A DNA stretch of 64,000 bases from Dictyostelium discoideum (Eukaryota), in contig CM000154.2 in assembly GCA_000004695.1 (NCBI GenBank), positions 288,001 through 352,000 on the forward strand. The letters are read 5' to 3'. Below are positions 30,028-64,000 of this stretch, piece after piece. The notes under the pieces were generated by a model. The model was not told the DNA's origin, ran no database searches, and saw nothing but the letters and a program-made list of their open reading frames with translations. Numbering within the stretch: position 1 is the first letter of the stretch; every line of letters begins with the position of its first letter. The translations under genes were made by a program, and so were the position numbers.

Positions 30028-30034
<7 letters not shown>

Positions 30035-32988
30035 AATGCAGAAGTTTGTTGTTGAACTGGAGAAGAAGTTGAAGAAAAAGTTACAGGTTTACTACCACTT
30101 GAATTTAATACACTACCACTATTTGGAGGACTACCAACAGAAGTGACATTATTTGAGGCGGTTGAAGTTGTGGTGGTGGTGGTTGAAGGTGGTGGACCAG
30201 AGATTGTTTGTTTTCTATTTTGAATTGGTTTTGTAGAAACTTTACCACGACCTCTAATGGTTTCAGCTTTTCTTTTTAAGAGTTGTTCAAAGTTTGGATT
30301 ACTATGAATGTTTGATTTAATTGATTGAACCCAACTATCCATTTCGGCCATATTTGCAGCGGCGATAAAATAAGCGGCATGATTTGCTTGAACCAAAGTA
30401 CCATCGGAATTCAATTTACAAGCTTTCATTTGCTCCTGTGAGGAATGAAGCATAAAACAAAACTTTTTCTGTGGGTCGATGGTGACGACAACATTCTCCA
30501 ATGGAATGATACCACAAGGTTCATGATCTTGAGGGGTCTTATAGTAGAGTAAACAATTGGCGGTCAATATGAACCAACGCTTCTTCCAAGTCTTAATTCT
30601 ACCACCTTGCTTTGTTAACCAACCTTTCTTTTCAACATGTTGATTTGCTTGATTACCATCACGCTCCATCTTAATTTCGTTGGTAACGATTTTATCATAA
30701 AGATTCTCCATGAAATCGGGTGGTAAATCATCACCACTATTGATACCACTATTATTACGAAGGAATTCAGCTTTGGTCATTTTCTTCTTTATGTTTGGAT
30801 TATGAGCATCAGTGTTTAACATAATCACAGAGAAAGCCAATACATAGACAGCATCTTGATTTACAAATACCTTATTCTCTGGATTATGTTGATAGAATTG
30901 TGATGCAAATTTCTCCATCATACGATCGATCTTTTGAGCTTCACCAGGCAATCTAAAAGTGAGTAGATATTTACGTAATGCCACATCGAAATCCAATCCA
31001 AAAAAGTTTAATTCATCTACAAATGCATGGAGTACTTGAAGGTTGAAATCATCACCTTCACCAATATACTCACCAATGGATTGTTTTGAAAGTTCACTAT
31101 GAGTCAAAAGGAAATGTGCAACCTCTTTTGGATTCTTTTCACTAATTACACCATTGGCAACAATGAATTCAATACCTTTCTTTGGATGGCTATTAAATTG
31201 AGCGATTGCAGCTTTAATCAATAACAATTTTTGTTTCTCTGCGGCCAATTGTTCCATATCTTCTTTGGCCTGTTGTTCCAAAGCCAATTGAAGTTCATCG
31301 ACTTCATGATTGGATGATTCACGTTTATTGACGATTTGATAGATTTCATCATGATTCTCGGTACCAAAGGTTTTTGTGAAATCAACTGATGAACGTAGAC
31401 TAACTTGATCTAAATCTGCACCCGCTCTAATTAAAACACGAGCCACATCGGAATGATTCTTTTTGATGGCATAAACCAATGGAGTTTTACCTGCAAAGTT
31501 TTTAGCATCAATACGTGCCTTAAATTGAATTAACACATCCACTGTATCACGAGCACCAGCTGCACTTGCCAAATGTAATGGTGTACTTGAATGGGTGTCG
31601 ACGGCATTAACATTTGCACCCTTTTTCAAGAGGATTCTACAACAATCCGAATGACCATTGTAGGCTGCATTATGTAGGGGCGTACCACCTTGACTATCTT
31701 TAACCTCCAATTCAGCACCACTTCTGATCAATGTTGCCAAACATTTACTTCTACCATTGAATGCTGCTTTATGTAATGGTGTTGCGCCTTGACTATCAAC
31801 GATGCAAATGGGTGCTCCTTTATCGACCAATAGCTTGGCACAAGATGAATGGCCATTGAATGATGCTTTGTGTAGTGGTGTTGCCCCCTCTTCATCCTTG
31901 ATATTGATTTGTGCTTTATAACGAATGAGTAGATCTACCATATCAAGTAAACCATTGAATGCTGCCAAATGAAGTGAAGTTGATTGACGACTATCTCTGC
32001 AATCGATCATTGTTGGATCTAAATATAAAAGATATTCACAAACTTCTTTATGTCCATTGAATGCTGCTTTATGTAATGGTGTTTCACCCATTTCATCCAC
32101 CATATTAATCTTTGCTCCTAACTCTATTAAACGTTTGGTTAATTGTAGGTTACCATTGAAACATGTATGATGTAACGGTGTGACACCCTCGATATCGACA
32201 CAATTGATGTTCTCACCATTTCTTACCAATTGCTCAACACAATCTACATAGCCTGCAGATGCGGCATTGTGTAATGGTGAAATACCATGAATGTCACGAG
32301 GATCCACTTTTGCGCCCTTTTTCAATAATAATGATACACAACTTGAATGACCACTAAATGAAGCTTGATGTAATGGTGTGATACAATCATTGTCCACTGC
32401 ATTCACTTTGGAGTCGGCCTTAATCAACAACTCTACACATTGTGGATTACCACCAGCAGATGCATGATGTAACGGTGTTTCACCATTGGTTGTCACTGCT
32501 CTTGGATCTGCTTTACCATTTAATAAATATAGTACACATTCTGCTGATGCAAATAATGATGCTTTGTGTAGTGGCGTACCATTTTTATCATCTTTGGTAT
32601 TAACGTCCACTCCACCTTTTTCTACCAATAGTTTGATACACTCTAAATGTCCTCTACTTGATGCCCATTGCAAGGGAGTATTACCTGCTGAATCTTTAAT
32701 GTTGGCATTTGCTTTCTTATCTAACAAAAAGTTTACACATGCTGCTGATCCACAAAATGCTGCATGATGTAATGGTGTTCTCTTTTCAGAATCTGGTGTA
32801 TCTGGTGATGTTGCTGAATTATTCAAAAGATTTGATAACTTTTCAATATCACCTGTAGATGAATAATAATGTACTGATGGTCTTGTTGGTGCTGAATTTG
32901 AATGTTTTGCTGTTGTTGCTGGTGCTGCTGTTGTTGTTGTTGTTGTTGTTGATCCTGTATTCTTTGTTGAATTTGATGTTGATCCCAT
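30028..32988 (-). CDS. secG: Arf guanine-nucleotide exchange factor with N-terminal ankyrin repeats, a Sec7 domain and a PH domain, 986 aa
   Basis: It has at least 14 ankyrin repeats (TPLHxAAxxGH pattern). The Sec7 domain carries the catalytic glutamic-finger motif FRLPGEAQKIDRMMEKFA. A PH domain follows (KKGWLTKQGGRIKTWKKRWFIL). This architecture matches the described Dictyostelium cytohesin-like SecG. The symbol is assigned from memory of that architecture, not from a search. Confidence 0.75.
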
Positions 32989-53416: not shown

Positions 53417-54545
53417 TTATTGCATACTTAATAAAACACCAATTGCATTTAAACCACCAAAAAAGAAGGAGAGTTGACCAGTTTTTTCAGTGAGATCTTC
53501 TAATTTTTTATTTTTAAATTGATTAATTAATGAAATAATTTTTGGAATTAAAATTAATGGTAAATTTAAAATATATTTATCAATATCTAATGATAATTTA
53601 AATAAATAAATATAGGCACTAAAATAAAATAAAATTAAATTAATTATTAGTCAATATTTGTTAACAGTTTTATATTTGTTCATTTTTTTTATTATTATTA
53701 TAATAAAATAAATAAATTAATAAATAAAATAAATTAAAATAAATTAATACGTACAATAAATATAAGCCAGCATAAATATAATAACAATTTTTAAAACCTA
53801 ATTTTGAAGCTAATGTAATTGAACCAGCTTCTGTATCAGCTTTAATATCTCTTGTATTATTTACATGTAAAACAGCAACGATTGTCAAAGCCAATGGGAT
53901 TGAATAAAAGTAAGCTAATGAATCATGATAATGAGTTTGAGAGATGAATGCTGATTGTACCAAGATTGGACCAAAACATAAGAAAATGGTTAAATCACCC
54001 AATCCAATATATTTTAAACCAATTGGAGCGGCAGTATAGGAGATGTTTAAAATGAAGCCAAAAGCACCCAATGGTAGGATATTCTCCACTATACATTTGA
54101 TATTATCCATTCTAAAAATCATTAAACCCAAACAAATTGCACATTGAATTAATAAATACCAAATTAAATTTATAATATTACCCTCTGTTAAACCAAAATC
54201 AAACATTGTTCTATCGGCTGATTTCTCTTTGGTATCATTTCCATTCTTACAATCATAAAAACTATTTACAACATTACCTAAGGCTTGTAATGAAACTGCT
54301 CCAACTAAAATAATTGATAACATTATACTATCAAATTCTCTAATCTCTCTAAATGCTAATGCTGATCCAACCAATACTGATGTAACTGAAATTGTTAATG
54401 ACCATGGTCTAGTTGCTAAAATAATTCCCATTAATTTTGAAATTGGTGGTTTTTGTTGTTGTTGTTGAGATGATTCTGTTTTAATCTCTTTAGTTTTATT
54501 TACAACTTGTTTTGTTTTTTCATTTCTATTTATAGTTGTTGACAT
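53417..54545 (-). CDS. UbiA-family prenyltransferase of the UBIAD1 / MenA (1,4-dihydroxy-2-naphthoate prenyltransferase) type, about 330 aa; join(54545..53755, 53618..53417), predicted 136-bp intron
   Basis: ORF 53670..54545 contains ILATRPWSLTISVTSVLVGSALAF and ALGNVVNSFYDCKNGNDTKEKSADRTMFD, which match UBIAD1 motifs ([23 protein letters not shown] and [26 protein letters not shown]). The track ORF tail (YVLIYFNLFYLL...) looks like read-through into an intron. A GTACGT donor follows ...AGLYLL, and the acceptor TTTTAG is followed by FAYIYLFKLSLDIDKYILNLPLILIPKIISLIN...GQLSFFFGGLNAIGVLLSMQ. This restores a hydrophobic C-terminal segment with a consistent frame. Confidence 0.7.
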
Positions 54546-54599
54546 TTTTTTTTTTTTTTTTTGATCACCACACTGTGCTTTGGGTCTTTTAATAAAAAA

Positions 54600-54971: not shown

Positions 54972-55008
<37 letters not shown>

Positions 55009-55077
55009 TTAATTTATTTTAATTATTTTTAAAAGTTTTTTTTTATTTGTTGAAAGTAAAAATAAATTTTTTTATAT

Positions 55078-58000
55078 TTAAATTAATTTATTAATTAGGT
55101 GATTTGGTAAATTATCTTTTAAAATTTTAAGTAATTGTTGATCATCTTTAAAATTATTGATTAAATTTTTAGAATTATCAATATTTTGATAATGTTTAAT
55201 AATATGAAAGTTTGAATTTTTTAAAGTTTTTTTTAGCATATCTTGAGTGATTTTAATTTCTTTTGGATGATTTTTTAAAACTAAATCACAACATTTAATT
55301 TTACCTTTGACAAAGAAATCTGAAAATAAATTTTGTTGGAAATAAGTTTCCTTGCCATTGAATGATTTTCTTGCTTTGACATCTTTATTTAAAAACTCTT
55401 GAAGTTTTAAAATTATAAATGATTGAGTTTCTGGTTGTTCAATGATTGATTTTATTGAGTTAACTTTTTGTGACCGATTTTTGATAAGCAAAGGGAGGGT
55501 TTCATTCAATTGAACTTTGAAATTTCCCATACCTTCATGACGGAATTGGTGTATTAACAATACGATCACATTCTCTGCTATTCTATTTCTAATTTGTAAA
55601 TCATTACCAATGAATTTATCATACAATTCTGTAGTTTTATTACAACAAAGATACTGAACTAAATTATTTAAAAAAGTGAATTGAATTTTTGAATCTTTAT
55701 CTCCAAGACTTTTAAATATCAATTCAAAGTTATTTTTTACTTGTTCAAAATGATTTTCATAAATGTATTTAATTTCCGAGTAATTACTTAAATCTAAATA
55801 ATTAATGATATCAATTTTGAAATTATCCATAATAAATGAAATTATATCAATTCTATTTAACTTGGCAGCTAAACGATAAATGATATTATGGAAATTTGAA
55901 ACGTAGGTATTAAATCTTAAAATTCTTTGAATTTCATTAATATCCATTACTTTACAAATTGAATTTAAAAGATCAATTGAAAATTCGAATATATTAATTA
56001 ATTTTAGCATTGGTTTAATTTGATCAATTAATTTACTATCATCCCAATCAATTTTAATTGAAGATTCTTTTGGTATTGGTTTTTCATAATATTTATCTGT
56101 TATTGATCTTTTTATTAAATTTGTTGATTCTGTTGTTGTTGTTGTTGTTGTTGTTGTTGATTCTGCTGTGAGTACATTATTTGTTGAATTACAATTGAAC
56201 ACTTTACTATTTGGTAATACTGAATCTAATGGTGAATTAGTTAGATATGATTGACTATAAATTAAGTTTTCATTTTCATTTAAATAATCATCGATCCAAT
56301 CCAATAATTCCCAAAATAAATCTTTTCTATTAATATCTAAACAATATTGTAAATCTGAATTTAATGATTGACTAAAGAAATCACCACCATCTACTATTGA
56401 ATCTCTATTATCTTTTTTACAAATATCATGTGATAGTTTTTTAATTAATTCTTTTAAAATATCATCAAATGAAGTTCTAAATTTAATTTTATCACTATTA
56501 TTATTATTATTATCATTATTATTATTATTATTATTATTGCTATCTCTACCTAATAAATAATCATATGTAAAGAAATCTGTATTGAAATGAGTTTCTAAAT
56601 TAAAACCTATAGTTATTTCATGATTTGTTGAAGTATTATAACCAACGAAATTTGAATCTGATAAAGAATCCATGAATGATTTGATACCAGGTCTTGTGAT
56701 GAGATATTTTGATAATTTTGGTGATCTTAAATTAAGATAAAAGAAACAACGGAATAAGTTATCATTTGGTAAAAATGAATGTTCCTCCAATGAATTACGA
56801 ATTGATTCCAATTGTTGAATTGTTAAACCATCAGTTCTGATTAGAGTATCATAAAGATACACAAAGATGACATTATAGGATACCCTGCAATCAATGCCCT
56901 CTTTATTGGCTTCATTTGAGTATTTATCAACCATTAGATTAATTAATGAAATGATTTGATCGACATTATTGGCATATTGAAAGATTGATTCATCTTTATA
57001 AAATAATGTCTTTCCGAATGATAAACGACTACTGCAGTATCCTGGATTCCAAAGTTTGAAAGGGGTGATATTTCTAATGAACAACTCGGCCAATGTAAAG
57101 TTTCTATCGGTAAGGAGGGTGGTGGTGGACACTGTTGCTTTAACTATCGGCACTTTAAATGTAAACTCCAACTTTGGTGGTGGAATGATTCTAGTGAATT
57201 GTGATAAAAAGTTGAAATATAAATATTTCTTTCTAAATTGTTTAAATGAACGTTGATTGAAATAATTCCATAGTCTCATTATGGCTCCTATGTTATCACG
57301 TGAAGGGAATTCAAATCTGTGAAAGTTTGAAATCTTTGAAGTAAGATCATAATTCTCAGAAAATTCACCCTCGATTCTGCTTAATTCCCCAATATCACCC
57401 TCTTTGATTGCTTTCAATAAATTGTTAATTTTAATTGAATATAATTTTGATTCATCAAATACAAGGGGGTATTTATGGTCATAGTTGTCCTCTGTAAAAT
57501 GAAGCAAATCGTTGATGTGTTTCAAATCCTCATAACCATAATCTTCATCCTCGCCATCACTATCGTTCTCATCATTGTCATCACCTACGTAATCAAACTT
57601 TGCAGTTTCTTCTTTTTCAAGTATAAAAGCGATATCGGCTATTCCTATGTTGTCCCCATTATCTTCCCCAATATGCTGTTCTTGCAACTCCTCTTGATCC
57701 TCATCCTCTTGCTCTTCCCCATTTCCTTGGTCTTCTCCATTTCCCTGGCCTTCTCCATTTCCTGATTGAGCTATATCTGGTGGTAGTTGTTCTTTGAATT
57801 CTTTTTTTTGAATTGGACCAAGCTCTTTAATTGCTTCACCATAAATACGAGAATAATAATAATAGAAATTTGTTGGTTTAAATTCAATTGCAATTAATTT
57901 TCTCAACTCTTTTAATTTATCGAATCCAACTTGATTATTTGTACGAATTGAATTTACTTTCTCTTCAATTAATTTATCTCTATTTGTTTTTGTACGGTTA

Positions 58001-59016
58001 TCTAAAATATGTTCAAAATAAAATCTTAATGTAACCAATAATCTTTCATAACGTCTATCTATTACTAACCAATCTCTAATATCAAATTCATTTCTATCAT
58101 TTGGTTTTGAAATATAAGCCACTCCTAAATCCATCATTTTATTCATCATTCTTACTTTATAAGTAGTTATAAAGTTTTCATACCCAATTTTTTTCAATTC
58201 CTCTTCTTCTTCTTCTTCTTCTTCTTCTTCCTCATTTTTTTTACTTTTTGTTGTTGCTATTTCATCTTCTTCATTTGAATTTGATGGTTTTAATTTCTTT
58301 CTTTTTTGTTCTTCTTGAGTTGGCTTTGTATATAATGATGGATTATCGATTAAATATTGAAGAATTCTTGTTTGATTAGCATTATTATGAGCTGAACGGA
58401 ATGAAAACTTCTTTACTTTTGCAGAAATTAAATCAATACCATGATTCTTTATGTTGAGTGGATTTGAATTTACAATCTCTTTGATGGTCTCTAAACAATT
58501 GCATTCAAATGCAGTTTTTAATGTATCTGGCTCAATTAAAAGATTGAATGGCTCGTGAACTAGTAATCTTAATACTTCCGGACTGTCCAACTCTATGGCA
58601 AGATTAGTGAGATCACAGATTTCAAATTCATCTCTTCTATGGGTCATTAATAATCTAATGACTTCTAAATATTGTTCTTTGTTTTTTAGTTGTGGATGTT
58701 GTTGTTTTCTAAATGTCAATTTTTTAAATAAATATCTTATTGACTCTTTATCAATTTCAATGTAGTCACCATGTTTGATTTTATTTTTAATTAATGAGAA
58801 TAACTGATTCCTTATCATTAAAAAAAGTGAATGAATATCTTCAAATTTGCATCGATTATTAATATTATAATCTAATGGAAGTTTATAGTCTACCCATTCA
58901 GTTTGATGAATTTGGTTTAATATCACACTAACTATATAATTGTTTTTAAAAACTTTCCAAAATAATATTTCTCCATAACTAGTATTATTATTATTATTGT
59001 TATTATTACTTGCCAT
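55078..59016 (-). CDS. Large hypothetical protein, 1312 aa, with a poly-Glu tract and GNGE(D/E)QGNGE repeats
   Basis: It is a clean long ORF. Its N-terminus (GEILFWKVFKNNYIVSVILNQIHQTEW) is paralogous to the N-terminus of the 39156 gene product. Confidence 0.65.
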   Translation of the reverse strand: MASNNNNNNNNTSYGEILFWKVFKNNYIVSVILNQIHQTEWVDYKLPLDYNINNRCKFEDIHSLFLMIRNQLFSLIKNKIKHGDYIEIDKESIRYLFKKLTFRKQQHPQLKNKEQYLEVIRLLMTHRRDEFEICDLTNLAIELDSPEVLRLLVHEPFNLLIEPDTLKTAFECNCLETIKEIVNSNPLNIKNHGIDLISAKVKKFSFRSAHNNANQTRILQYLIDNPSLYTKPTQEEQKRKKLKPSNSNEEDEIATTKSKKNEEEEEEEEEEEELKKIGYENFITTYKVRMMNKMMDLGVAYISKPNDRNEFDIRDWLVIDRRYERLLVTLRFYFEHILDNRTKTNRDKLIEEKVNSIRTNNQVGFDKLKELRKLIAIEFKPTNFYYYYSRIYGEAIKELGPIQKKEFKEQLPPDIAQSGNGEGQGNGEDQGNGEEQEDEDQEELQEQHIGEDNGDNIGIADIAFILEKEETAKFDYVGDDNDENDSDGEDEDYGYEDLKHINDLLHFTEDNYDHKYPLVFDESKLYSIKINNLLKAIKEGDIGELSRIEGEFSENYDLTSKISNFHRFEFPSRDNIGAIMRLWNYFNQRSFKQFRKKYLYFNFLSQFTRIIPPPKLEFTFKVPIVKATVSTTTLLTDRNFTLAELFIRNITPFKLWNPGYCSSRLSFGKTLFYKDESIFQYANNVDQIISLINLMVDKYSNEANKEGIDCRVSYNVIFVYLYDTLIRTDGLTIQQLESIRNSLEEHSFLPNDNLFRCFFYLNLRSPKLSKYLITRPGIKSFMDSLSDSNFVGYNTSTNHEITIGFNLETHFNTDFFTYDYLLGRDSNNNNNNNNDNNNNNSDKIKFRTSFDDILKELIKKLSHDICKKDNRDSIVDGGDFFSQSLNSDLQYCLDINRKDLFWELLDWIDDYLNENENLIYSQSYLTNSPLDSVLPNSKVFNCNSTNNVLTAESTTTTTTTTTESTNLIKRSITDKYYEKPIPKESSIKIDWDDSKLIDQIKPMLKLINIFEFSIDLLNSICKVMDINEIQRILRFNTYVSNFHNIIYRLAAKLNRIDIISFIMDNFKIDIINYLDLSNYSEIKYIYENHFEQVKNNFELIFKSLGDKDSKIQFTFLNNLVQYLCCNKTTELYDKFIGNDLQIRNRIAENVIVLLIHQFRHEGMGNFKVQLNETLPLLIKNRSQKVNSIKSIIEQPETQSFIILKLQEFLNKDVKARKSFNGKETYFQQNLFSDFFVKGKIKCCDLVLKNHPKEIKITQDMLKKTLKNSNFHIIKHYQNIDNSKNLINNFKDDQQLLKILKDNLPNHLINKLI

Positions 59017-59438
59017 TTTTTTTTAATTATTATTATTATTACCACCAGATAGTTTGTGTGTATTTATTTTGAATTTTTTTTTAATAAAAAAAAAAAATTT
59101 TTTCTTTTTTTTTTTTTTTTTTTTTTTTTTTTGAAAAAAAACAGTAAGTTTTAGATTTTCGAAAAAAAAAAAAAAAAGACATTTTATCAGAGTCGCGCAA
59201 AGATCTTCGGGAAATTCAAAAAAAAAAAACGAATTTTTTGAACTGTTTTTTTTTTTTATTTTTTTTTATTTTTTTTTTCGTTTATTTTTATTAACAAATT
59301 TTGAATGAAAAAAACACTGTCAGTGAAACCGCTGAATGGTTCCTGGGACCTCTACCTTAACCAAAATTTAAATCTGTTCAGAGTTTTTAAAATAATAAAA
59401 AAAAGAAAATAATGGTGTTTTTATGATTTACTTTTTAA

Positions 59439-59475
<37 letters not shown>

Positions 59476-59606
59476 CATTTAATTTATTGAAAAAGTAATA
59501 AAAATTAAAGTAATAAAGTTTTAATTTTATTTTATTTTTTCCTTTTTAGTTCATTTTTTGTAATTATTTTTTTTATTTTGAAGAAAAACAATTATGTAAT
59601 ATATAA

Positions 59607-61166
59607 AAATATAATCAATTTATTAAAGCACAACAATTATCATCAACATCATCAGGTGGTGGTTTAAATTCAGGTCAATTAAATAATAGTTTTTTAGGTG
59701 GTACAGGTAGTATTAATAAATCATTTGAAGAAATTGAAAGAGAAAGAATTAATCAAAATTAAAATTTTAAAGGTAGATTACAATCAAATTTAACAGATTT
59801 TAGTTTTGAATTTAATGGTAATGATAGTATTTTAAAATAACAACAAGAGAAAGAACAACAAGAGCAAGATGATGGTGGATATAATAGACAAAGTTTAATA
59901 AATGAAAATCAATCAACAATGTCATCATTAAATAATACAAATGAACCAATTATTAATACAGGTGATGTTAAAGTAAATTCACAAAAAGTTAAAACATTTG
60001 AACAAACTGTATCTGGTAAAGTTGAATTATTGAAATTTATTAGAGATAAGAATTTTTATGCAATTTCAAGTTGTGCTACAAAATGTAAACGTTGGTTTAC
60101 AATTAATATTTTATCACAATTGGTTGAACCCGCACAATTATTTTTATAATTAGCTAAAGAAGATGATCAACAACAACAACAACAACAACTTCAAGAAGAA
60201 TTATCAAAACCATTTACAAAACAACAATATGATAATATGATGAATGGCACACTGTTGGAATTCTTGAATTATCTCGTGATAAACATGTTTTCCTCGATTT
60301 TAATAAAGGTGGTCAAGGTTGGATTGCAAATGAATTACCAACTGATGAACAATTATTATTTTGATTATTCGTTGCTTACATGGATTATAAATTATATAGA
60401 GATGTTACTGCTCCAAATCCAGATATACCATTTTCTTCAAAATATATTAAACATGAAGATAGTAAATGTAAGTTATATAATACCCTATACATACCATATA
60501 CATACTATATACTAACTTTTTTCATTCATTTTATAGTTATTAATCTCAATATTCAATAATGATTAGTATTGCATATAAAAGACCATTACATTGACAAAAT
60601 AATGTAATTTGGGATATTTCACCTGGTTTTGATAATTTATTTTTCTCTATTGTTTTATTCTTTTATAATGTAATTCAAAATCAAAATGGTTCATCATTTT
60701 ATATGATAATCATAAGAATTTCAAATTGGTGGTAATTGAAGAGTTTCTTAAAAACTATTCAAATTTATTTAAAAATAGAGATCAAGTTTCCACCGATATC
60801 TCTTTGAAAATGTCAAGTCTCTATTTGGGTAATAGTTTAATTTCAAAGTTTTGTACCGACTATTCAAAATATAATTACTTGGAATTGGTATTACGTGCTC
60901 ATAAGAATTACTATGTACCATTGTTATTACCATTCTATAAAACTTCAAATCCAAAGGATATCAAAAAGGATGTTATGTTACAAACTGATCTTGAAAATTT
61001 CCCAAGATTAATGAAATCCGCGAATATTGTAAAATACTTTGTAACCGATGAAGAGAAAATGGATTTATTCTTTGAATTGGCAGGTTCTTATCATAAATTT
61101 ACAACCTTGGAATATATTGACCCATCAATTTCAACTTGTAAATTCAGTAGAATAAAAATTAAATAG
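59607..61166 (+). pseudogene. Disabled gene with an F-box-like N-terminal region. It has three in-frame TAA codons, one in-frame TGA, an 8-bp tandem duplication frameshift and a degenerate exon junction.
   Basis: A coding-like frame runs from 59607 with in-frame TAA codons at 59760, 59838 and 60147, flanking the track ORF 59919..60149. It contains F-box-like SCATKCKRWFTINIL. At 60228-60243 the sequence tatgataa|tatgatga is a tandem duplication that shifts the frame to +2 (YDEWHTVGILELSRDKHVFLDFNKGGQGWIANELPTDEQLLF, then in-frame TGA at 60362, then LFVAYMDYKLYRD...HEDSK). A GTAAGT...TACTAAC...TTTTATAG intron (60469-60535) follows, but the downstream frame is closed until ORF 60726..61166, which has no ATG. 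Confidence 0.65.
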
Positions 61167-61685
61167 TTTTTACCTTTTTTTATTTTTCCGACAATTGTTT
61201 TTATTTTTCAATTTTATTTTATTTTTTTACGATTTTTCTTTTTTTTTAAAATTTTGGTAAAAAAATAAACGTTTACCAAAATATTGAAAAAATAAAAAAA
61301 AAAATAATGAAAAAAATCTCTATCCATGGACTATCGCCAACAATTAATATGAGATTAAAAAAAAAAAAAATTTAGTTGGTTATATTTTTATTTTTTTTTT
61401 TCTAATTTTCGAATGAGACCATAACAACTATTAAATTCAAAAAAATATTTGTAATAGCTATTTGATAAAGATTTTAAAAAGATACTCCAGAGTATCCAAG
61501 TCAGTATTCTTTTCCCTGAGAAACTTATTGAGGAGATAAAACAGGTATGGGTTCTATGATTATCATTAAAACAGCTAAAAAATTTGGTGCGTTGAGTGTG
61601 CCCAAAACTTTCTCAAAGTTTGTTCCTAACTGTTGATATAACTTTTAAGATTAATATAGGTTTTGGCTTACTTAATTTTATTATT

Positions 61686-61724
<39 letters not shown>

Positions 61725-61944
61725 CATTTACAATCTTTCTTGAAAAAAAAAGTCTTAGAAGACGATATTCAATAAAATTATCTTCTTAAAACATTTTTTT
61801 TATTTTGTTTATTTCTGAAATTTACCAAATACAATTAATTAAATAAACAAATAACCAATTAATCTTTTTTAAAATAACAATTTTATTATTATTTTTTTAA
61901 TTTTTTTTTTTTTTATTTGATTTGAGATTTAAAAATTTTTTATT

Positions 61945-63613
61945 TTATTTTTCAAACATAATTAAACCCTTTTCATATAAAGCTGAAACTACATCTAATT
62001 TTTGATCATCATCTTCAATTGGTAAATCTTTAGTATAGATATAGGAAGGATAGGAATCGATGATATGTTCTAAAGCATCTACACATTCAAGAGTGAATTC
62101 AACGACACCTGGTTCCTCGCCAACTTGATGATAGATACGAGTGTTATCGGCATTATGGAAGAGGATGGCAATATCTTCGACAACCAATCTGACAGAGTCG
62201 GCTCTAATTAAACGGAATCTAGTTTCAGGTTTGATTTTCATTGAGGTTGTTTCATCTTCAATGGAATGTTTCTTTTCTAATTGAGTTAAAACTGGTGGTA
62301 AAGAATCTAATAAATATTTAACAGCCATTTGATCGGCACCGATATCAATTGGTAATAGTTGGCCCAACTTGTCCCAAAGTGTTCCAACCTTGTCTGTCAA
62401 CTCCTTTCTTCTCTCATCACCAACTTTATCACTATGAATCACACCCAAGTATTGAGTATAATCTCTTGGTAAACCTTCTCTAAACTCTAAGCATTCCTCA
62501 TTTGCAATCTCCAATGCTCTATTCAAAACCTTTCCAATTAAATCACCCCATGTATTATTTAAATAAGTTGAAACTGTGATATGAAGTGAATGTACATCCG
62601 ATGGTGATACAGCTTGATGAATCACACCTCTTGGAAAGTATAATAAATCACCTGCCTCTAAAGTCACTGTGAAATATGGTTCACCAATCTCTTCTTGTGT
62701 GAAATTTTCACTTGATTTCTTTGGTAAAACTTCATTTGCATCTCTTGGTTTATATAATCTCCATTCTTTTTTACCCTCCAATTGAAGAATAAATACATCA
62801 ACATCATCATAATGTGGTGCAAATCCTTGTGCTCCTGCTGGTGTTAAATAAATATTTGCACCAACTCCACATTGAAAATGAGTTTGTAATGTACTACATA
62901 ATTTCCAAACATTTGAATTAAATGTTTGTGGATTTAATAATCTAACTGAACAACCTTCCTGGGGGGAAAAATAAAAAAAATAAAAAAATAAAAATAAAAA
63001 AATAATAATTAATTTAAATTTCTTTTGTGTGTGTGTGAGTGTGTGAGTGTGTGATAATTTTTTTAGAAAATTAAATATTTACTTTATAATGTTTCCAAAC
63101 TAATGATGGATAAGCTCTACCTTCTGGATTTAAAGTAATTCTTTGGAAATCGACATAATTTGTGACATCAACATTTTCTGTGAATTTCATTAAATTATTT
63201 CTCAACATTTTATCTAAAGAATCTTTAGTGAAAAAGTTTTTATAAATGTTGTCCCCATTTCTTTTAACGTATAGATGTTTTTGACCAAAGTATTGGTCAT
63301 AGAAATCTTCAATGATAGTTGGTGAAATTAGACCTGCTAAAACACCATCAGCTTCAACACGTTGATCTGCAACTGATAATTCATTACTACCAATATCGTT
63401 GATATTGATTTCACGAATTTCAGTTTTCTTTTTTGGTACTAATTTGGTTGGTCTTAATGGTTGACTTGATACTTGGGGTACTGATTTAGTTAATGGAACT
63501 GGTTTACTCTTTTTTACAACTTTCTTCTTTTTTTTCTTTCCATTATTATTATTATTTACTCCAACTTCCTCTTCTGACATTTCTTCAATTTCTTCTTCTA
63601 ATCCTCTTTTCAT
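61945..63613 (-). CDS. JmjC-domain ribosomal oxygenase (NO66/MINA53-like 2-oxoglutarate/Fe(II)-dependent hydroxylase), 514 aa; join(63613..63083, 62958..61945), intron 62959..63082
   Basis: ORF 63071..63613 ends ...LVWKHYK at a GTAAAT donor. A CCCCCCAG acceptor precedes EGCSVRLLNPQTFNSNVWKLCSTLQTHFQCGVGANIYLTPAGAQGFAPHYDDVDVFILQLEGKKEWRLY, in frame with ORF 61945..62781. The motif HYDDVDVFILQLEG is the NO66/MINA JmjC iron-binding region. The N-terminus is acidic/Lys-rich and nucleolar-like. Confidence 0.8.
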
Positions 63614-64000
63614 TTTTTTATTTTTTATTTTTTATTTATATATTTATTGTGAAATCTTTTAAAAGATTAGGAAAAAAAAAAAAAAAAAAAAAACGAAAAA
63701 AAAATGAAAAAATAAAAATTAAAATAAATTAAAATAAAAAAAAAAAAAAAAAAAATCAAAATTAAAAAAAAAAAAAAAAAACGATAGTGACGGGAGTTTT
63801 CAAAAATTTCAATCATTTTTAAAAAATCAAGATCTATTAACAATTTCAGGTATAGAAATTTAAATAATCTTAAAATGGTATTTTTGGTGACTAAAAAAAT
63901 TTAAAATAAAAAAAAAAATAAAATAAAATAAAATAAAAATTAAAACTATAATAATAATTATGGTTCAAAAAAAAAAATTTTGTTTTTTTATTATTAAAAT

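Follow-up and report, generated by a model that had tools for sequence, protein, structure and literature searches.

The stretch of DNA analysed here (the window) comprises 64,000 nucleotides of Dictyostelium discoideum (contig CM000154.2, positions 288,001 to 352,000), and the locus in question lies on its forward strand at 59607-61166. We conclude that this locus is very probably a non-processed chimeric pseudogene, composed of an old, truncated duplicate of the nuclear-envelope gene TMEM209 and a fragment of a gene for a UBR-box E3 ligase, and that it has no present protein-coding function. A preliminary description, based on the letters alone, had seen in it a single, F-box-like gene that had recently been disabled. 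That this is a pseudogene rather than a working gene is borne out by its stop codons, frameshifts, truncation and missing start codon. It is not a single gene, however, but a mosaic of a TMEM209 duplicate and 455 bp of a UBR-box E3-ligase gene, and the F-box assignment does not hold.

Identity of the two source genes

When the conceptual translation was scanned against Pfam, with matches reported to E<=1, PF09786 (TMEM209) was the sole match, at E=1.4e-8 and 34.6 bits vs a gathering score of 27.3. This family was historically named 'CytochromB561_N'. No F-box family appeared at that threshold, and the motif that had been quoted for it is a TMEM209 signature: SCATKCKRWFTINIL is the most conserved motif of TMEM209, with C, R, W, F, T, N and I invariant in 6/6 aligned sequences, and in the alignment CKRWFTxNI is invariant across the dictyostelid TMEM209 proteins. 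Other invariant motifs are kept in the copy as well, namely LVxPA (as LVEPAQLFL) and DxTAPxPDxPFSSKYI. In a database search, the full-length dictyostelid orthologues of TMEM209 matched at E=2e-90 to 4e-96, with proteins retrieved from D. discoideum (P0004, 786 aa), D. firmibasis (P0003), D. purpureum (P0005), P. violaceum (P0006) and H. album (P0007), together with two short protein models built on the locus itself, to which we return below. The intact paralog that the preliminary description had proposed to look for is thus found in the 786-aa TMEM209 gene, which lies on another contig or chromosome.

A tblastn search with the intact D. discoideum TMEM209 resolved the homology into three blocks in the window, each in a different frame: aa 318-534 at 59613-60224 (56% identity, E=5e-50), aa 617-~682 at 60260-60467 (the reported match being aa 617-698, with 77% identity and E=4e-33), and aa ~686-747 at 60538-60690. 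Combined with a six-species alignment and an alignment of the 5' boundary, these blocks delimit three segments on the plus strand. Segment A (59613-60233) corresponds to parental aa ~318-536, its homology possibly starting from ~59597 (parental aa ~309-318); segment B (60242-60467) corresponds to aa ~611-682 and holds the DVTAPNPDIPFSSKYI core; and segment C (60537-60690) corresponds to aa ~683-747. For TMEM209 aa 1-317, tblastn found only low-complexity noise, and both N-terminal transmembrane (TM) helices are gone. The copy also lacks the last ~39 aa of TMEM209 and, when compared to D. purpureum, has lost a net ~32 codons where segment B follows on segment A (...QQYD to ILELS...), and the alignment of the 5' boundary revealed no start codon for the TMEM209-derived part.

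The last ~150 codons of the locus show no TMEM209 homology. Instead, the 455 bp at 60691-61145 (plus strand) are a sharp-ended fragment, in an intact frame, of a gene for an E3 ligase with a UBR box (N-recognin type). In an exhaustive HMMER search, their translation is 89% identical (E=3e-82) to aa 285-435 of ACTA71_007947 of D. dimigraforme (P0130), a protein of 1571 aa with a PF02207 zf-UBR domain at aa 70-138; weaker matches are relatives of 1.5-1.8 kaa. At the nucleotide level, the fragment aligns ungapped to the D. dimigraforme gene (L007, 3109-3563) with 88.1% identity. The UBR box lies outside aa 285-435, and the Pfam scan gave no PF02207 match on the locus. The source gene changes abruptly at 60690/60691, where ~1 nt is shared with the TMEM209 sequence, and the fragment has the same orientation as the TMEM209 part, but is out of frame with it. 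After the fragment follows a non-homologous tail of six codons (SRIKIK) and a TAG (61146-61166, plus strand), and directly after the locus lies A/T-rich intergenic DNA. Could the mosaic have arisen by a single segmental duplication? No UBR gene adjoins the parental TMEM209 in D. discoideum, D. firmibasis or D. purpureum, and therefore the mosaic did not come from copying two adjacent genes.

Disabling lesions

In total, the TMEM209-derived part (plus strand throughout) carries 5-6 nonsense codons and two frameshifts (+8 and +2). Three TAA codons share one frame of the three-frame translation. The one at 59760-59762 stands where D. discoideum and D. firmibasis have TTT (Phe) and D. purpureum has TAC (Tyr), that at 59838-59840 falls in a variable, low-complexity region of the protein, and that at 60147-60149, just after the invariant LVEPAQLFL motif, is one substitution away from the parental TCA (Ser), with CAA in D. 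purpureum. A TGA at 60362-60364, in the frame used downstream of the +8 shift, replaces a Cys codon (TGT) conserved in D. discoideum, D. firmibasis and D. purpureum. These four stops had already been reported and are confirmed at the same coordinates. Segment C adds a TGA at 60592-60594, where the parent has TGT for Cys, and a possible in-frame TAA at 60541-60543, neither of which had been noticed before; the same is true of the ~32-codon loss, the loss of the N-terminus and start codon, and the change of source gene at 60690/60691.

The first frameshift is caused by an exact 8-bp tandem duplication, AATATGAT followed by AATATGAT, at 60226-60241, which moves the homologous reading from frame 0 to frame 2. 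The duplication described earlier is thus real, although the register given for it (60228-60243) lies two bases later and matches at 7/8 positions. Removing one AATATGAT unit rejoins the upstream and downstream homologous frames, which then read ...FTKQQYDEWHTVGILELS.... No other exact tandem duplication of 8 nt is present in the region, and 24.8 kb of intact open reading frames (ORFs) of the same window contain 0. We also considered that the repeat could be a matter of chance, with YDNM as the ancestral sequence, since P. violaceum has YDNM there; this was rejected because the repeat is exact in the right register, unique and frame-restoring. The second frameshift is a net +2 indel within 60537-60550. 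A shift at the splice junction itself was rejected, as the spliced frame is correct for three codons, first reading SK/FIN where the orthologues read SK/YIN, and the indel lies just downstream. The frame of the downstream exon is therefore closed, as had been stated, by this indel and then by TGA 60592.

Verification of the sequence

The window has the character of D. discoideum nuclear DNA, with ~20% GC, long A/T homopolymers and many long standard-code ORFs. We compared its positions 55000-64000 to contig CM142511.1 of GCA_054883475.1, an independent, chromosome-scale long-read assembly, and found 0 mismatches and 7 differences in homopolymer length, all of them intergenic; 59560-61200 is identical. 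This assembly is one of several long-read genomes that cover AX2 and wild isolates (PMC12745789). The homopolymer differences are found at 59086-59109, 59162, 59443-59446, 61689-61694, 63672-63675 and 63736-63739, with the run always longer in the window, and could be either artefacts of sequencing technology or genuinely hypervariable tracts. A 1422-nt contig from short reads (run SRR26869247) differs from the window by 2 single-nucleotide polymorphisms (SNPs), and contains all the lesions in its span, as well as the unspliced intron and the TMEM209/UBR junction. In this second D. discoideum genotype, the SNP at 60248 (C>T) would be a His>Tyr change in the TMEM209 frame, and that at 60764 (T>C) is synonymous in the UBR frame. 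Because the lesions recur in an independent assembly and in a second genotype, assembly error, for which the preliminary description had advised a check, is excluded, and more than one genotype carries the lesions.

For the same reasons, the idea that the stops reflect sequencing or assembly error, or that the locus is expressed and rescued by readthrough, frameshifting or RNA editing, is hardly credible. Nothing beyond the residual coding signal speaks for it. Readthrough or correction at the RNA level, which had been kept as the lesser alternative, is unsupported in view of two stop types, two frameshifts, a truncation and the absence of a start codon. Lesions as heterogeneous as TAA, TGA and frameshifts of +8 and +2 speak against it, and the combination of TAA and TGA stops with accompanying frameshifts does not fit an alternative code or programmed recoding. 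A ciliate-type code (TAA = Gln) was rejected in particular, since ORFs in the standard code reach 1312 aa in other genes of the window, which argues against codon reassignment.

Origin and age of the TMEM209 copy

The intron at 60468-60536 (plus strand; GTAAGT...TACTAAC...TTTTATAG), rightly recognised before as canonical, is a phase-1 intron of 69 nt that occupies an ancestral TMEM209 position. It matches TMEM209 introns of D. purpureum (intron 2) and P. violaceum (intron 4) in codon and phase, and is absent from the TMEM209 genes of D. discoideum and D. firmibasis, each of which has one intron, in the N-terminal region missing from the copy. The retained intron implies that the duplication took place at the DNA level, rather than through an RNA intermediate, and before the main gene lost that intron. 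Accordingly, the copy shows what is expected of a non-processed pseudogene, i.e. a parent gene elsewhere, disabling lesions and a retained parental intron. With its intron kept, both ends truncated and only generic A/T runs as flanking repeats, it does not look like a processed one; a search of its surroundings for flanking repeats or transposon signatures likewise gave generic A/T runs only. TMEM209 intron numbers (5 in P. violaceum, 3 in D. purpureum, 1 in D. discoideum and 1 in D. firmibasis) follow a pattern of stepwise loss, and, as judged from these gene structures, the pseudogene would record an intermediate state of that process.

In the codon alignment, nucleotide identity of the copy is 80.4% to the D. 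discoideum gene and 80.4% to that of D. firmibasis, these two being 88.4% identical to each other; the copy is nearer to both than to D. purpureum (72.6%). Parsimony-informative sites favour D. discoideum and D. firmibasis TMEM209 as sisters, by 47:10:8 for nucleotides and 9:0:0 for amino acids. Furthermore, the two genes have in common a poly-Q insertion of ~40 residues, which is absent from the copy and the outgroups, and the copy keeps outgroup-like residues, e.g. GW-IANELP. From its phylogenetic position, the retained ancestral intron and the lack of the shared poly-Q insertion, we infer that the duplication took place after the split from D. purpureum and before that between D. discoideum and D. 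firmibasis, for which PMC12745789 gives an estimate of 50-100 My. Because of saturation, D. purpureum is an unreliable guide to the polarity of synonymous changes, and branch-specific nucleotide counts were therefore not used for rates.

As such, the earlier suggestion of recent pseudogenisation stands in part: the duplication itself is old, predating the D. discoideum/D. firmibasis split, but the disabling came late relative to that origin, given that the coding signal is better kept than age alone predicts.

Probable past constraint and timing of inactivation

Pairwise dN/dS of the copy to D. discoideum or D. firmibasis TMEM209 is 0.10-0.12 over filtered, well-aligned columns, and 0.20-0.24 over all gap-free columns (bootstrap confidence interval 0.13-0.35). 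The functional pair of D. discoideum and D. firmibasis gives 0.04-0.07, and ~0.5 would be expected of a copy that had evolved neutrally from the outset. Differences specific to the copy are distributed over the three codon positions as 56/41/70, compared to 19/11/77 for the functional pair, a profile that is flatter yet still enriched at third positions. Moreover, of 85 residues that do not vary among five orthologues, the copy retains 78 (92%), while neutral decay predicts ~40%. We simulated such decay starting from the parental sequence and with the base composition of local non-coding DNA. At d=0.2-0.43 substitutions per site this produced 14-23 in-frame stops, with P(<=6)<=0.01, while the 5-6 stops observed, 3-4 times fewer than under lifelong neutral decay, fit d~0.04-0.12. 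Based on dN/dS, the retention of invariant residues and the deficit of stop codons, the reading frame of the TMEM209 copy was probably kept by selection for most of its history, and was probably lost in roughly the last fifth of it, within the D. discoideum lineage.

Several points weigh against our explanation. A dS of 0.6-1.1 is near saturation in this AT-rich genome, the NG86 method is crude, and dN is underestimated when protein similarity steers the alignment. The alignment of the 5' boundary revealed neither a start codon nor an N-terminus for the protein that the copy is supposed to have encoded, and annotated dictyostelid proteomes yielded no intact orthologue of the truncated copy, in a search that misses many proteins. 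Lastly, a decay time of d~0.04-0.06 common to the TMEM209 and UBR pieces has a joint probability of ~0.1, too high for it to be rejected.

A rival reading is a locus that was dead on arrival, i.e. fragments pasted together by repair or rearrangement that never coded for protein, with low dN/dS and few stops resulting from saturation, alignment bias or a younger age. The absence of a start codon, the loss of the N-terminal third including the TM helices, the two pieces being mutually out of frame, a dS near saturation, and the lack of an intact orthologue of the copy in other proteomes all agree with this. However, the copy branches outside D. discoideum and D. firmibasis and keeps an intron that both have lost, and hence is old. 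At that age neutral decay predicts far more stops than are observed and far fewer conserved residues than the 92% that remain, and its differences are still enriched at third codon positions. We therefore regard an origin as mere debris as unlikely, and favour a pseudogene that passed through a constrained phase.

The UBR fragment and public protein models

In contrast to the TMEM209 part, the UBR fragment is undecayed. It has 0 stops in 151 codons and, when set against D. dimigraforme, an omega of 0.105, its differences being spread over the codon positions as 8/7/39. A recent arrival would fit these values. For the inferred decay time, the piece would remain intact by chance with P~0.1-0.25.

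Two annotation pipelines have called proteins at the locus. The first model, ACTFIT_000127 (P0001, 316 aa), requires seven 'introns' within 1.7 kb; each of them falls exactly on a stop or a frameshift, most resemble coding sequence in GC content, and one is only ~24 nt in length. The second (P0002, 309 aa) takes an internal ATG as its start, removes the invariant CKRWFT...LFL motif by splicing along with TAA 60147, runs for 75 codons out of the homologous frame, and then joins the donor at 60468 to the UBR ORF. An exact look-up found neither the 309-aa model nor a 146-aa ORF on record. Both public models are forced around the lesions, and are annotation artefacts.

It could be argued that the locus is nonetheless a functional gene, either a multi-intron gene as in one of these two models, or a young chimera in which the donor at 60468 is spliced to an acceptor at ~60716 and so to the UBR ORF. 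Apart from the two gene calls, it would draw on the intact UBR-derived ORF with its low omega and third-position differences, on a real splice donor upstream, and on the spacer of ~600 bp of A/T-rich sequence towards the head-to-head neighbour, which could be a promoter. Conversely, the two models disagree with each other; the first needs the seven introns described above; both excise invariant family motifs or read them out of frame; the only contig found outside of genome assemblies is colinear with the genome and unspliced; and an intact UBR piece is to be expected by chance at the probability given above. A working gene is for these reasons very unlikely, and the chimeric pseudogene remains the reading that we prefer.

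Proposed history of the locus

The locus started as a partial duplication of TMEM209 at the DNA level, covering the C-terminal two-thirds of the gene without the N-terminal TM region. For most of its time, this truncated copy would then have persisted under selection with its reading frame open, until some 0.04-0.12 substitutions per site ago, when it would have been disabled in the lineage of D. discoideum. The lesions responsible would be nonsense mutations at single-step codons, the 8-bp tandem duplication, the +2 indel and the loss of the start codon. The UBR fragment was joined abruptly, and may either have replaced the 3' end of TMEM209, as the very event that killed the gene, or have come later.

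A bolder extension, which we put forward only tentatively and consider rather doubtful, is that a TM-less, truncated TMEM209 paralogue was a selected gene for tens of My in the D. discoideum lineage, and is perhaps still intact in close relatives. The present locus would then be its freshly dead allele or, in a bolder variant, still yield a chimeric TMEM209-UBR transcript or protein via the splice donor at 60468. Candidate relatives that may carry the intact paralogue are D. citrinum, D. intermedium, D. dimigraforme and cryptic sister species, and its product, if so, may be an undescribed soluble or tail-anchored TMEM209-like protein.

Neighbouring features in the window

The locus is positioned head-to-head, across the ~600-bp A/T-rich spacer, with a single-exon gene at 55078-59016 on the minus strand, coding for a protein of 1312 aa without a Pfam domain. 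In an exact look-up this protein was present only in GCA_054883475.1. The only relatives retrieved are 37% identical and come from another region, a cluster of large domain-less genes in 'D. cf. discoideum', so that the gene looks like a member of a fast-evolving, lineage-specific family. In the A/T-rich spacers that flank the locus there are two short GC-richer islands (59305-59385 and 61485-61640), the second of which holds a 29-codon ATG ORF at ~61547-61636. The islands have no Rfam match and no excess of RNA structure on either strand (z-scores -0.6 to +0.7), and an Rfam scan of the locus and its flanks, on both strands, returned sub-threshold noise only.

Further away, a gene on the minus strand at 48533-52327 encodes 1264 aa with acyltransferase, ACP and NAD_binding_4 domains and a weak ketoacyl-synthase match; from this domain content, the product is predicted to be polyketide/fatty-acid-synthase-like or reductase-type. 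It is adjoined by a UbiA prenyltransferase gene at ~53421-54549 (minus strand). A 986-aa ORF at 30028-32988 (minus strand) combines ankyrin repeats with Sec7 and PH domains in an ArfGEF-like architecture, and lies in the most GC-rich part of the window, a striking outlier for this genome with a GC content of 0.37 vs ~0.20 elsewhere. The pseudogene stands between the UbiA and 1312-aa genes on one side and a JmjC (RIOX1-like) gene on the other, and a search with the protein of this JmjC neighbour gave no dictyostelid matches.

Significance and comparison with known systems

The function of TMEM209 is poorly understood, and we found no literature on TMEM209 in Dictyostelium or on the locus at 59607-61166. 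Duplicated and chimeric pseudogenes are commonplace, and general understanding is unchanged by one more; the main value of this locus lies in annotation, in genome natural history and in the history of TMEM209 and its introns. The 316-aa and 309-aa models should give way to the annotation of a pseudogene, with both source genes named. The locus further offers a dated snapshot of TMEM209 before the loss of introns and the gain of the poly-Q insertion in D. discoideum and D. firmibasis. If the long constrained phase is true, dictyostelids once had a TM-less TMEM209 paralogue, which can be searched for in sister species.

How does the locus relate to the systems that it resembles? Its likeness to F-box proteins is superficial, and limited to a Leu/Ile/Trp-rich motif. 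Compared with UBR-box E3 ligases, 60691-61145 resembles aa 285-435 of ACTA71_007947 at 89% in protein and 88% in DNA, but represents only ~10% of such a protein, without the UBR box or a RING-like region, and is in frame with no sequence upstream of it. The relation to the TMEM209 family is closer, as 59613-60690 is homologous to the C-terminal two-thirds of these proteins and keeps their invariant motifs, 78/85 invariant residues and an ancestral intron position. It differs from them by lacking aa 1-317, the last ~39 aa, ~32 internal codons and a start, and by its stops and frameshifts. As such, the copy is a derivative of TMEM209, and not a functional member of the family.

The closest parallel is found in duplicated and chimeric pseudogenes. 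Like these, the locus is a partial genomic copy that includes an intron, carries nonsense and frameshift lesions, and has a sharp junction to an unrelated gene. Microhomology of ~1 nt at such a sharp junction is typical of end-joining. It departs from them in two ways: it is unusually old for so few lesions, which implies that a long period of function or constraint came first, and the intron that it keeps has meanwhile disappeared from the parental gene.

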